Positions 16,321 through 19,743 of a stretch of 64,000 nt of DNA are shown here, piece after piece. Origin of the DNA: Escherichia phage WPEC6; sequence record PV763039.1; one strand, written 5' to 3'. Numbering within the stretch: the stretch's first letter is position 1; every line of letters begins with the position of its first letter. Made by a program: the position numbers and the translations under genes. The notes under the pieces were generated by a model, which searched no databases, was not told the DNA's origin, and saw only the letters and a program-made list of their open reading frames with translations.

Positions 16321-16599
16321 TTAAAATGGTTCGTTAGTCTCCATCATATATTCTGCTTCTAGTTCTTCCATGTGCTTTCTAAATTGGAAAGCAATTTCTG
16401 CTACAGTTACATTTAAATCTTTTTCAAAAACCTCTGTAGAGCCTTCATAAAAACGAATACCGTCAATTAAAAGCCCTCCGTGGTAATCCCAATCACTTTC
16501 ACGAGAAAGTGGGTTAGGTTCTTCATAATAGTAATCCACCTCCACAACTAAGGCTTTCCCATTACGAGTGGTGTATTCAAAATCAAAAGTGTTAATCAT
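16321..16599 (-). CDS. Hypothetical protein
   Basis: 92-aa ORF. Confidence 0.5.
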   Translation of the reverse strand: MINTFDFEYTTRNGKALVVEVDYYYEEPNPLSRESDWDYHGGLLIDGIRFYEGSTEVFEKDLNVTVAEIAFQFRKHMEELEAEYMMETNEPF

Positions 16600-17543
16600 T
16601 ATAGCTCCTCAAATAAAAGTCTACGACGCTCATTCAACACATCAATGTGATAATGAGTCCTGACATACTTAGCTAATGCTAATCCTTTCTCCATGCAAAC
16701 ATCGGGAGCACTTAATAAGTATTCCGTAATATCTTTCCACTCGGAAGGTGTTTCAGCAAAGAATAACAGATCTTTAAACTCTTGTGTATGATAATTCTCA
16801 CGAGGAGAACAGATTAAAGGTAAACCCTTAGCACCTGCCTCAAGAATTTTAAGATTGCTTTTTGCGTTATTAAACACGTTATCGATCAATGGCGCAAGAC
16901 TGATTTGATGACCATCGTAAGATTCCATGTAGTTGGCATATGGTCTCACACCTTCATAAACACAAGTTGGTGCTACATTTTCTCTGATTACAGACCATTC
17001 ACGACTACTTAAAACTTCAGAATCCCTACGAAAACCACATATTGTAAGATCTTTACCAAAATCGGGCAAGATAGCCAAATCTTGTTTATGTGTTTCACTT
17101 CCAGCCCAGACTAATGGAGTTTTGGAGTAGCGATCACGGGTCAACACAAATTGACCTTCATCGTAAGGAAGTCCATTAGGGATTATGTGCACATTATCAT
17201 TGTATTGTGAAAGTTCAACTTGCAAGGCAGGTGTCGTAGTTGTAACAAGATCGCTGTGCTCTAAAAACCATTTTAAATGTTCACGAATACCTGATTCAAA
17301 AATACCTTCTAACATGTGTCCTTTTGGAATAACTAAAGAGTCATCCAAATCCATAACCATTTTAAAACCTAGGTTTTTAAGGGCTAAAAAGCCCTCTTTA
17401 CCTTTTGTTGGCACTCCGTTAAAAACGAAAACGTTGTGTTTAGGTTGTGAAGAGAACTGCCTTGAGTAAGGCAGCACTACCCTATGGAAATCGCAGACAC
17501 TATAATTGATTCCGTTACGATTGTCAAGAATTATTTGTCCCAT
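16599..17543 (-). CDS. Putative glycosyltransferase (GT-B-like), paralog 1
   Basis: 314-aa ORF; C-terminal KSNLKILEAGAKGLPLICS resembles nucleotide-sugar binding region of GT1/GT4 enzymes; tandem paralog of next gene. Confidence 0.45.
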   Translation of the reverse strand: MGQIILDNRNGINYSVCDFHRVVLPYSRQFSSQPKHNVFVFNGVPTKGKEGFLALKNLGFKMVMDLDDSLVIPKGHMLEGIFESGIREHLKWFLEHSDLVTTTTPALQVELSQYNDNVHIIPNGLPYDEGQFVLTRDRYSKTPLVWAGSETHKQDLAILPDFGKDLTICGFRRDSEVLSSREWSVIRENVAPTCVYEGVRPYANYMESYDGHQISLAPLIDNVFNNAKSNLKILEAGAKGLPLICSPRENYHTQEFKDLLFFAETPSEWKDITEYLLSAPDVCMEKGLALAKYVRTHYHIDVLNERRRLLFEEL

Positions 17544-17550
17544 ACTTCAC

Positions 17551-18498
17551 CTACAAACTTTCAATAACCTGGCGTCGCAACTCATTTGCATCTGCCAGAT
17601 TGTAGTGTGTTCGAACATGTTCTGCTAAGAACAAGCCACGATCTTCCCGATAATTTGGATTGCGAAGAAGTTTAACAATTTCGTAATGCCATTCTGCTTT
17701 ATTCTCTGCGTAAGCAACAGCACGAGCATCTACAGGGTTAAAATAAGGTAACACTTTAGAACAAACAATCGGAATACCTTTTGCTCCAGCTTCCAAGATT
17801 TTGAGATTACTTTTACAATTATTAAAATCATTGTCCACTAGAGGAGCTATAGCAATAGCATGACTCTCGTAAACACTCATGTAATTATCTAAATCTTTTA
17901 CAGCAGCTTTATATTTGGCATTTGGTAAGTTTCTGCGGATCTTAATCCACTCTTGCCCCGTGATGCTCTGTGAAGCTTCGTATCCTGCAATAGTAAGAAG
18001 TTCATCATCAAAAGTGTTAGAGACTAGTCGTAAATCAGGTTCGTGACTAGCCCCGCCAGCCCATACGACAGGAGTACCGGATGAACGATCATTTGACAAA
18101 GTGAATTGTCCGCTATCAAAAGGAAGTGCATTTCGGATCACAACAACATTCCTATTTAAATGACGGATTTTATATGCCAAATATTCCGTAGTCACAATGA
18201 CCACATCAGCAAGCTTAACCATAGCTACAATAGCATGAGTGTTTGACTCGTATAGACTTGCTAAATAATGCTCTGGATTAAGTTGGTAAAAATCATCTAA
18301 ATCTACAACAATCTTAACACCTTGACGTTTCAAAGATAAAACGTATTCTGCACCTTTAGAGTGGATACGATTAAACACAACAACATCTTTCTTAGGTTGA
18401 AGATTATTGTTGTTAAATGGCATAACAATACGATGATAGTCACAACCGCTGTGAGGTTTTGCATCAATTTTTAGTTTAGACCATTTTTTATTTGACAT
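17551..18498 (-). CDS. Putative glycosyltransferase (GT-B-like), paralog 2
   Basis: 315-aa ORF collinear with previous (CDYHRIV..VVFN...KIVVDLDD...KSNLKILEAGAKGIPIVCS). Confidence 0.45.
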   Translation of the reverse strand: MSNKKWSKLKIDAKPHSGCDYHRIVMPFNNNNLQPKKDVVVFNRIHSKGAEYVLSLKRQGVKIVVDLDDFYQLNPEHYLASLYESNTHAIVAMVKLADVVIVTTEYLAYKIRHLNRNVVVIRNALPFDSGQFTLSNDRSSGTPVVWAGGASHEPDLRLVSNTFDDELLTIAGYEASQSITGQEWIKIRRNLPNAKYKAAVKDLDNYMSVYESHAIAIAPLVDNDFNNCKSNLKILEAGAKGIPIVCSKVLPYFNPVDARAVAYAENKAEWHYEIVKLLRNPNYREDRGLFLAEHVRTHYNLADANELRRQVIESL

Positions 18499-19171
18499 GT
18501 GCTAGTGCCTCCTCATAGGAAATTCGGATTTTCCCATTTTTAATATCCTCTAAAGATGCTTTATATTCTTCCCAGTTAATCCCAATAGCAGCTTCTTTCT
18601 CTTCTTTTGTCAGATTAGCAAAAGGCATAGGATTGTTTCCAAAAACATCGTCTGGGTGGATATAAGCCATGATACGAAGTGGACAAGGTGTTGCCTGAAT
18701 ACCATGATTCAAACCAGCAGCTTTCAAACGGTGTCCCCATTCAGCATCTTCAAAACCATAGCCGTGAGTGTAAGGGCGGAAATAACCCATCTTCTCAACA
18801 ACGGCACGAGAATACATTGCAAATTGACACATTGCAAGTTCCCAGAGAATAACTTCTCCTTTGCTCCCGACAACTTTATCTTTGAAATATTCCGGCATAC
18901 CAAAGAAATCCCATCCTCCAGAGATAGCTTGATCTACAAAATATGTTTCCCATCCTTCCATAACTGGGTAGCAATCGTCATCAAAAATAAACCAATAATC
19001 ATAACCTTCTTCATAAAACTGGTGCATAAGTTCATTCCTGGCGTAAGCTACACCTTTACGATCTGGATCGTTGAATACTCGAAAATCTGCACGTGGGTCT
19101 GTTACAAGGTAGTCTTTTAGTGGACGGACACCTACAGTGATAACACCCACTCCGATTTTAATATTTTCCAT
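18488..19171 (-). CDS. Putative GT-A fold glycosyltransferase (GT2/GT7-like)
   Basis: 227-aa ORF with DxD region WFIFDDDCYP and YGFEDAEWGHRL resembling the WGxEDDD motif of GT-A galactosyltransferases. Confidence 0.5.
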   Translation of the reverse strand: MENIKIGVGVITVGVRPLKDYLVTDPRADFRVFNDPDRKGVAYARNELMHQFYEEGYDYWFIFDDDCYPVMEGWETYFVDQAISGGWDFFGMPEYFKDKVVGSKGEVILWELAMCQFAMYSRAVVEKMGYFRPYTHGYGFEDAEWGHRLKAAGLNHGIQATPCPLRIMAYIHPDDVFGNNPMPFANLTKEEKEAAIGINWEEYKASLEDIKNGKIRISYEEALAHVK

Positions 19172-19179
19172 TTTCTCTC

Positions 19180-19743
19180 CTAAATAGTTTTACTGTGATC
19201 GTGACAGTGTAATAAATGATGTATAGACCGTTGAGGATTTGTTTGACCTAATCTGTAAATGTGAAACAGATACATTCCCCGCATCAATCCTAACCTCTTT
19301 CCTTTTTCATGTAAAGTGCGAGAGAAAATTAAGTCGAATTGGATAGATTTTTCTTCGAAAGGAATTTCATTCCACAGTGATTTTCTAAAAAGCAAAAAGA
19401 AACCTGCCAGAGGTGTTCCGAAAGGAACTTCTTCAACACTCACTTTATGATATTCTCTTGCAATCTTAGCATATTCTATATGGTTTAGAATATCTGGATC
19501 ATCGTTAATTTGGTTAGAGAAAAGCTGATAACCACTGCCTAACCTGTTACAAGTTGCACCTATTACATCAAAAGGTGGGTTTGACATAACAAGCTCTTCA
19601 AGCATAGATGGTTGATCAGGTAGGAGGAACATTGTATCGGTATCTCTTAAACACACCCAACTATCATCTGGAAGAACGGCAATAGCTTCATTGATAGCCT
19701 TGCCGATATTTCCTGTCAGATAGGGAGTAATATAATAAATCAT
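19180..19743 (-). CDS. Putative glycosyltransferase-like protein
   Basis: 187-aa ORF with CLRDTDTMF (DxD-like) after N-terminal nucleotide-binding-like segment; weak. Confidence 0.35.
   Translation of the reverse strand: MIYYITPYLTGNIGKAINEAIAVLPDDSWVCLRDTDTMFLLPDQPSMLEELVMSNPPFDVIGATCNRLGSGYQLFSNQINDDPDILNHIEYAKIAREYHKVSVEEVPFGTPLAGFFLLFRKSLWNEIPFEEKSIQFDLIFSRTLHEKGKRLGLMRGMYLFHIYRLGQTNPQRSIHHLLHCHDHSKTI

Follow-up and report, generated by a model that had tools for sequence, protein, structure and literature searches.

A glycosyltransferase cluster of Escherichia phage WPEC6 as a candidate mobile module for virion-protein glycosylation

Escherichia phage WPEC6 carries four adjacent glycosyltransferase (GT) genes at positions 16599-19743 of the 64,000-nucleotide stretch of sequence record PV763039.1 (the window). 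A first-pass annotation, made from the sequence alone, had read them as a tool for DNA base hypermodification. Our best reading, which we hold tentatively and which that annotation had not raised, is that they form a cytoplasmic glycan-building module that may decorate virion proteins. With slightly less confidence still, we propose that the cluster exemplifies a widespread mobile module (a GT-A enzyme, an optional nucleoside diphosphate (NDP)-hexose 4,6-dehydratase, a second GT-A and a GT-B) that might glycosylate virion proteins in phages of Gram-negative and other hosts. The genes and their annotation were already known, since RefSeq labels all four 'glycosyltransferase'. What is new here is the recognition of the cluster as a copy of a mobile three- to five-gene glycan module, together with its spread over many phage lineages, often inside head morphogenesis blocks; we found no earlier description of either.

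The interval 16599-19743 is occupied exactly by four open reading frames (ORFs) on the minus strand. GT4 (19180-19743, 187 aa), the first gene of the module, encodes a minimal GT-A enzyme, and GT3 (18488-19171, 227 aa) a GT-A enzyme with FDDD (DxD) and YGxED motifs. GT2 (17551-18498, 315 aa) is a GT-B enzyme of the widespread, ancestral type of the GT1/GT2 pair, and GT1 (16599-17543, 314 aa) is its second paralog. GT4 and GT3 are 8 nt apart, GT3 and GT2 overlap by 11 nt, and GT2 and GT1 are 7 nt apart; the GT1 stop overlaps by 1 nt with a 92-aa ORF (16321-16599, minus strand) that matches PHROG 4240 (function unknown; E = 6e-33). This ORF is a doubtful member of the module: an ORF of 83-95 aa follows the GT-B gene in most related myovirus loci, and prophage versions of the module do not include the 92-aa type. 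Promoter-like sites numbered 36 against 25.4 expected from shuffles (s.d. 4.5), an excess of about 1.4-fold, and scanning the minus strand from 20.5 to 15.4 kb for terminator-like sites returned none. The terminator-free stretch and the promoter scan fit cotranscription and are silent on timing. On the same strand, about 2 kb upstream of the cluster, a sigma-70 promoter that matches the consensus perfectly (TTGACA, 16 nt, TG-extended TATAAT) occupies 22021-21994, in a run of small ORFs just upstream of the TerD gene.

The cluster is well conserved. Positions 16000-20500 are 100% identical to Escherichia phages WPEC1, WPEC2 and WPEC4, and 98% identical to many members of Phapecoctavirus (subfamily Stephanstirmvirinae), the genus of the window phage; examples are tuntematon, phAPEC8-like isolates and Mt1B1_P17. 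For questions that reach beyond the window we used the complete tuntematon genome (150,473 bp, 98% identical) as the reference. The whole cluster stretch is present in 70 phage records, 64 of them at 98-100% identity and six at about 70-75%, and this conservation argues that the genes are real rather than chance ORFs.

All four proteins are matched over their full length by PHROG profiles named glycosyltransferases, in the category 'moron, auxiliary metabolic gene and host takeover'. The paralogs GT1 and GT2 share 41% identity (E = 1e-77) and have borderline Pfam matches to group-1 glycosyltransferases; GT1 scores 25.2 bits against Glyco_trans_1_2, where the cut-off is 25. An alignment of GT-B homologs revealed an invariant KSNLKxLEAG motif, along with a conserved Cys-x2-His-Arg and DxDD in the N-terminal domain, and GT1 retains all invariant residues of the family. 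Homologs in other phages are nearer to GT2 than to GT1, and two GT-B copies occur only in the loci of large (phAPEC8/phi92-like) myoviruses, prophages and small phages having one, which points to GT1 as a lineage-specific duplication. In GT3, F63-D64-D65-D66 and Y138-G139-x-E141-D142 are invariant over 17 homologs; the protein matches PHROG 2456 (E = 9.6e-79) and PHROG 1579 (E = 7.6e-13), and its hits to the Pfam families TAGT, GT2 and Glyco_transf_7C all fall below threshold. GT4 has no Pfam match. Its DxD motif is invariant among homologs and, with the PHROG match, identifies as a real glycosyltransferase what the first-pass annotation had listed as a weak candidate.

Structure models were built for two of the enzymes, one GT-A and one GT-B (GT2), with predicted local distance difference test (pLDDT) scores of 93-95. 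The GT-B enzyme has two Rossmann-like domains and a C-terminal nucleotide-sugar-binding motif of the GT4-family (Pfam group-1) kind; the GT-A enzyme has a single Rossmann-like domain with a DxD metal/nucleotide-sugar site. The GT2 model is closer to enzymes of the GT4 family than to the T4 DNA glucosyltransferases: among its structural neighbours T4 alpha-GT ranks 20th, T4 beta-GT 36th and the HY126 phage GT 42nd. Searches of NCBIfam with all four proteins gave no match, and single-sequence and family-profile searches against solved structures (GT2, GT3 and GT4) gave chance matches only. None of the four proteins has a transmembrane segment. Three are acidic and one is mildly basic, which is weak evidence on DNA binding. 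Taken together, the motifs, models, PHROG matches and solubility bear out the enzymatic part of the first-pass annotation, namely two tandem GT-B-like paralogs, a GT-A with a DDD motif and a fourth glycosyltransferase.

Homologs of GT2 at 35-55% identity fall into 209 protein clusters, with at least 578 matches in IMG/VR. Many are found in bacterial genomes, and those that we examined were mostly in prophages. The order GT4, an optional dehydratase-like short-chain dehydrogenase/reductase (SDR), GT3 and GT-B recurs in unrelated phages. In Enterobacter, Serratia and Pseudomonas prophages, the module lies between the lysis cassette and the TerS, TerL and capsid genes. Enterobacter huaxiensis has the order endolysin, GT4-like, dehydratase-like SDR, GT3-like, GT-B, HNH, TerS, TerL, protease-capsid and portal; Serratia has the same order minus the SDR; and in Pseudomonas silvicola GT3-like and GT-B genes precede those for a metallopeptidase, a DUF2280 protein, TerL and portal. 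Other versions sit within or beside the head genes. Siphoviruses from IMG/VR have GT3 and GT-B between the genes for TerL, portal, S78 protease and HK97 capsid and the connector genes, and one contig has TerL, portal, GT-B, GT4-like, GT2-family GT, PLOD-type GT and Methyltransf_24 genes before the capsid gene, the Methyltransf_24 gene giving a weak rhamnosyl-O-methyltransferase-like match. On another contig, a 534-aa ORF (no Pfam match), GT3 and GT-B are followed by an SPP1-type portal and an E-type capsid, and on yet another GT-B and GT3 directly precede TerL, a Mu-type portal and capsid. More distant relatives are placed in a similar way: Streptomyces phage Zuko carries a dehydratase-like gene and a GT-B just before terminase and portal; a methyltransferase and a GT whose C-terminal domain is GT4-like lie between the portal/MuF and protease/capsid genes of Cellulophaga phage phi12:1; and an uncultured podovirus has a sugar-modifying cluster after its capsid gene.

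The association with structural genes was also apparent when loci were counted. TerL, portal or capsid genes lie within 10 bp to 7.6 kb (mostly 0.6-5 kb) of the GT-B gene in 47 of 77 GT-B-centred IMG/VR loci, most of these loci being contributed by one large lineage of aquatic phages, in which the GT-B gene is 2-5 kb upstream of TerL. A scan centred on GT3 located a GT-B gene adjacent or at most three genes away in about 22 of 27 loci. In all, linkage of a homologous module to virion structural genes is seen in at least seven further phage lineages. Chromosomal GT-B homologs, 41-45% identical, are present in Burkholderia dolosa (L032, 7205-8440) and Trinickia symbiotica (L033, 8001-9026). These stand without GT-A partners. 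Directly upstream of them are genes for an invasin/intimin-type inverse autotransporter (IAT_beta, Big_1, Invasin_D3) and for a protein of 555-571 aa that has no Pfam family. This locus may be an undescribed adhesin glycosylation system, and a GT-B homolog next to an invasin-type adhesin fits a protein acceptor.

A further thread leads to 6-deoxyhexose synthesis. Tuntematon encodes RmlB, RmlA, RmlC and RmlD about 70 kb from the cluster, RmlB and RmlD exceeding the NCBIfam trusted cut-offs, and a complete deoxythymidine diphosphate (dTDP)-rhamnose pathway has been described in this genus (Olsen et al., PMC7552041). RmlA at 60% identity or more is found in 122 phage records, nearly all in the same two genera as the cluster, and most Stephanstirmvirinae have both. 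A full RmlA is missing from about a quarter of phapecoctaviruses: it is found at 95% identity or above in 48 records, whereas the cluster is in 64. WPEC2 (L038, 8473-10204), which is identical over the GT cluster, has kept rmlC, rmlD, glutaredoxin and ThyX genes and lost rmlA and rmlB, of which only a remnant survives between rmlC and small ORFs by the ribonucleotide reductase (RNR) gene. We infer that the host's RffH/RffG or RfbA/RfbB could supply the first two steps of dTDP-rhamnose synthesis. Within the module itself, the SDR of three lineages (a 135-kb myovirus contig, the Enterobacter prophage and Streptomyces phage Zuko) has dTDP-glucose 4,6-dehydratase as its best match, at 170-190 bits and below the equivalog cut-off. 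The rml genes and the in-module SDRs thus tie the module repeatedly to 6-deoxyhexose synthesis.

GT3 also connects the cluster to phages in which virion glycosylation has been reported. Papers citing Freeman et al. 2023 report that mycobacteriophages Che8, Corndog and Myrna glycosylate capsid and tail-tube subunits and that Che8 gp110 and Corndog gp38 are essential. Besides orthologs, tblastn with GT3 retrieved about 356 mycobacteriophage records, mostly Che8-like. The GT3 family profile scores 72 bits against the N-terminal GT-A domain of mycobacteriophage Ramsey gp106, a cluster-F allele located at the right genome end, where Che8 carries gp108-110. Against Che8 gp108-110 themselves, profile scores are 5 bits or less, and GT3 gives E = 0.001 with gp108 in BLASTP against a five-sequence database.

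From these observations we propose that four soluble cytoplasmic glycosyltransferases would act in sequence to build a short glycan, the small GT-A enzymes GT4 and GT3 and the GT-B enzymes GT2 and GT1 each adding one sugar. At least one of these sugars is probably a 6-deoxyhexose such as L-rhamnose, with dTDP-rhamnose coming from phage rml genes and host enzymes. The most likely acceptor would be a phage-made virion protein of the head or tail, modified in the cytoplasm before or during assembly, as in Che8. What we observe directly are folds, motifs, solubility, paralogy, module conservation, gene neighbourhoods and the association with 6-deoxyhexose genes; the donor sugar, the order of action, an inverting or retaining chemistry and, above all, the protein acceptor are what we infer. 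We favour this proposal because the enzymes are real and soluble with intact catalytic motifs, because the module recurs in unrelated phages beside or inside terminase, portal and capsid blocks, because of its link to 6-deoxyhexose synthesis through rml genes and in-module SDRs, and because GT3 is homologous to a mycobacteriophage GT-A domain at the genome end of the Che8 virion-glycosylation genes.

Several points weigh against virion proteins as the acceptor. We found no report in the literature of a glycosylated virion protein in a module-bearing phage or in any Gram-negative phage. The cluster in the window sits between lysis and replication genes, outside the structural block, and its proteins show next to no homology with Che8 gp108-110, the enzymes implicated by experiment. 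In tuntematon, neither the capsid, decoration, tube and sheath proteins nor the structural proteins encoded near them have Ser/Thr-rich tails or segments. The top structural neighbours use not only proteins as acceptors but also sugars, lipid-linked glycans and small molecules. Finally, the region upstream of terminase in temperate phages commonly houses DNA methyltransferases and morons, which makes part of the context evidence unspecific. A tuntematon gene near the portal, annotated as a DNA methyltransferase, was considered as a possible sugar methyltransferase and rejected; it is an XkdF-type prohead protease.

The reading that the first-pass annotation favoured, in which a hydroxylated base would be glycosylated with rhamnose or another sugar for restriction evasion, is not new, as a link between dTDP-rhamnose and DNA had already been drawn when Olsen et al. 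2020 proposed rhamnosylation of hydroxymethylated nucleotides in these phages (PMC7552041). It draws on the position of the cluster among replication genes on the same strand, and on sub-threshold matches of GT3 to the TET-associated GT family (Pfam TAGT) and to PHROG 842, the T-even beta-glucosyl-hydroxymethylcytosine (HMC) alpha-GT. That placement is not diagnostic, because other phages carry this module among their head and packaging genes. The TAGT match reaches 19.3 bits where the cut-off is 27.5 and is limited to residues 32-67, a generic nucleotide-sugar/DxD segment; the PHROG 842 match (E = 6e-6) covers residues 32-71 only; and GT1, GT2 and GT4 matched no DNA-GT family in Pfam or PHROG. 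The nearest structural neighbours of GT2 are not DNA glycosyltransferases, and the acidity of three of the four proteins points weakly the same way. The characterised phage DNA glycosylation pathways described in a 2026 paper begin with a ThyA homolog that makes 5-hydroxymethyl- or 5-hydroxy-pyrimidine nucleotides (5-hydroxymethylcytosine (5hmC), 5-hydroxymethyluracil (5hmU) or 5-hydroxycytosine (5hoC); PMC13326640). A tblastn search with E. coli ThyA yielded only noise in the window and in the whole of the 98%-identical tuntematon genome (best E = 0.24); for the window this agrees with the absence of a thymidylate-synthase homolog noted at first pass. TET oxygenases are a further known route to DNA glycosylation in phages; no TET/JBP-type oxygenase is annotated in tuntematon or the window, as judged by annotation and with no profile search.

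The only thymidylate-synthase relative in tuntematon is a divergent ThyX encoded elsewhere in the genome, outside the region of the window, which scores 33 bits against Pfam Thy1 and falls below the NCBIfam cut-off. We considered this gene as a hidden base-modifying partner of the cluster and rejected it: its 1034 phage records (with FV3, ICP1 and PAK_P-type phages among them) compare with 141-146 for the cluster, a distribution so much wider that the two are not linked. Restriction data from relatives point in the same direction. The phi92-like BASEL phages have an orthologous cluster at 66-72% identity, and they are reported to be 'exceptionally susceptible' to restriction-modification (RM) systems 'despite a putative dTDP glycosylation machinery', a sensitivity that covers types I, II and III (PMC8594841). 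For Phapecoctavirus DNA itself, we found no restriction-digest or nucleoside data in the literature. The module is also present in contigs of about 20-50 kb and in prophages, where the sampled flanks (6-10 kb per side) are without nucleotide-metabolism genes. Every test that we ran went against DNA as the acceptor, and on present evidence we regard this published and indirectly contradicted reading as disfavoured and very unlikely. The first-pass finding as written was largely ordinary, and the interpretation that it preferred is unlikely.

Host surface polymers, the alternative that the first-pass annotation had offered, stand as a candidate that we consider rather unlikely and not the best fit. 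Here the enzymes would glycosylate lipid-linked precursors of a glycan on the host surface (the O-antigen or core of lipopolysaccharide (LPS), enterobacterial common antigen, colanic acid or the N4 glycan receptor), with the effect of hiding receptors, preventing superinfection or keeping progeny from adhering to debris. These phages do recognise surface glycans, the prophage module occupies a frequent moron site in the interval between lysis and terminase genes, and the PHROG category of the four genes includes morons and host takeover. Set against this, the cluster neither contains nor adjoins a gene for a GtrA/B/C-type protein, flippase, polymerase or ligase, and the four proteins are without transmembrane segments. 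The module is kept in phages of Enterobacteriaceae, Pseudomonas and Actinobacteria (with a GT4-like domain in a phage of Bacteroidota), and its conservation across such different host envelopes argues for a phage-borne acceptor. In several phages it is embedded between capsid and connector or portal and capsid genes. No integrase is annotated in relatives, and new envelope synthesis would probably be slow relative to the lytic cycle. We judge it unlikely, too, that the product is a small molecule, a glycolipid or a modified host protein serving host takeover, perhaps in concert with the Ter-type stress genes nearby. Both in the window and in a related myovirus contig, TerD, vWA-TerF, TelA and TerC genes are found a few kilobases from the cluster, and homologs are named 'processive diacylglycerol beta-glucosyltransferase' in some sources. 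Prophages and small phages, however, have the module without Ter genes, on which ground we rejected a functional link to them; the endolysin and several small ORFs intervene between the two sets in the window; and the neighbourhood gives no sign of an aglycone pathway. A PADLOC search for defence and counter-defence proteins returned no match, which indicates no link to known defence systems.

The surroundings of the cluster agree with the first-pass map, with the polymerase, methyltransferase-like, RNR, endolysin and Ter genes on the minus strand. Downstream come the 92-aa ORF, a primase-helicase (14530-16308; Toprim_2 and DnaB_C), a 143-aa ORF, an NPPF-motif methyltransferase-like ORF (13202-13996) and a family-A DNA polymerase (9870-13202). 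The methyltransferase-like ORF had no Pfam match at E < 0.001; in relatives it is labelled a DNA N6-adenine methyltransferase, and its GNPPFG motif is typical of amino-methyltransferases. Upstream are three small ORFs and a SleB-type endolysin (20445-20966; Pfam Hydrolase_2), followed by TerD (21065-21667) and vWA-TerF-like (22178-22972) genes, with TelA-like and TerC genes further on by synteny with relatives. Anaerobic RNR genes, named by synteny with annotated tuntematon genes, are at 31981-34262. The endolysin begins with a hydrophobic, signal-like segment (MLIKNFVTVALLSLTAFTFTPVVAKA), which suggests that it may be secreted or signal-anchored. The Ter-type stress set is also kept in the related myovirus contig (L007).

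Two further features of the window deserve mention. The polymerase ORF is 1110 aa long, compared with 865 aa in tuntematon, owing to an in-frame insertion of 244-245 aa at residue 583/584 (about 10722-11453, minus strand) whose flanks are 99.8-100% identical to tuntematon. The first residue of the insert is Cys and its last is Asn, followed by Cys; it also has a LAGLIDADG-like motif (LEGFLIADGYW). These features fit an intein with a homing endonuclease; in Pfam no intein match was found at E < 0.001. Positions 51700-60750 contain units of 77-160 nt in 4-14 copies, in both orientations and at 92-100% identity, often spaced at multiples of about 77 nt. Four of five units tested are single-copy in tuntematon, where they fall in three widely separated parts of the genome; no match to the fifth was found there. 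These repeats look like an assembly artefact of the source record rather than biology; 77 is a common assembler k-mer, which we offer as a guess at the cause. WPEC records measure 155-161 kb against about 150 kb for relatives. Some of the units are genuine promoter and terminator cassettes.

If virion proteins are indeed the acceptor, a glycan coat of their own making would cover phAPEC8- and phi92-like phages, which are frequent isolates and therapy candidates against E. coli and Klebsiella. Papers citing the mycobacteriophage work report that glycan coats reduce antibody binding and neutralisation. A coat on these coliphages could affect mucus binding, clearance and stability, with consequences for phage therapy and for the interpretation of cryo-electron microscopy (cryo-EM) maps. 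Glycan-coated particles would then be common well beyond mycobacteriophages, including among coliphages in therapy trials and collections, as a variant of a kind for which mycobacteriophages and, on the eukaryotic side, giant viruses are the only demonstrated cases to date. The analysis also corrects the earlier idea that DNA glycosylation is what these phages use their dTDP-rhamnose genes for. Should host glycans or DNA be the target instead, a function would still be assigned to a gene set that is found in hundreds of viral genomes and at present carries no label beyond 'glycosyltransferase'.

Among the nearest known systems, glycosylation of DNA by T-even and related phages is one comparison (T4 alpha- and beta-GT acting on 5hmC; the arabinosyl-5hoC of RB69, DLP3 and HY126; TET-associated GTs). 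The window phage group differs in having no ThyA-type enzyme detectable by tblastn and no annotated TET-type enzyme, in scores below the DNA-GT thresholds, in the restriction sensitivity of related phages and in the occurrence of the module in small phages too. Seroconversion by GtrABC is similar in that phage-borne glycosyltransferases change a glycan, and the prophage module is moron-like in position. Gtr systems, however, belong to temperate phages and need membrane proteins at the periplasmic face, whereas the window proteins are soluble, the cluster has no membrane partner and no integrase is annotated in tuntematon. Giant viruses offer another parallel, for they combine virus-encoded cytoplasmic glycosyltransferases with 6-deoxyhexose synthesis (the PBCV-1 A064R rhamnosyltransferase/methyltransferase; the Mimivirus fibril GTs), and their virion proteins bear rhamnose-containing, partly methylated glycans. 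Mimivirus R699 and R655 and chlorovirus B736L are among the structural neighbours of the modelled enzymes.

The Che8-type system of mycobacteriophages is also comparable. The window module differs in standing outside the structural block; the window proteins have no meaningful similarity to gp108-110; and the module has GT-B enzymes, a dTDP-rhamnose/4,6-dehydratase supply and a Gram-negative host. Both are nevertheless phage-encoded sets of small, soluble, cytoplasmic glycosyltransferases. Che8 glycans include methylated sugars, and related modules elsewhere carry a sugar-type methyltransferase. The equivalent locus of Ramsey encodes, in gp106, a GT-A domain homologous to the GT3 family. The relation between the two systems is one of resemblance in kind, not of membership.

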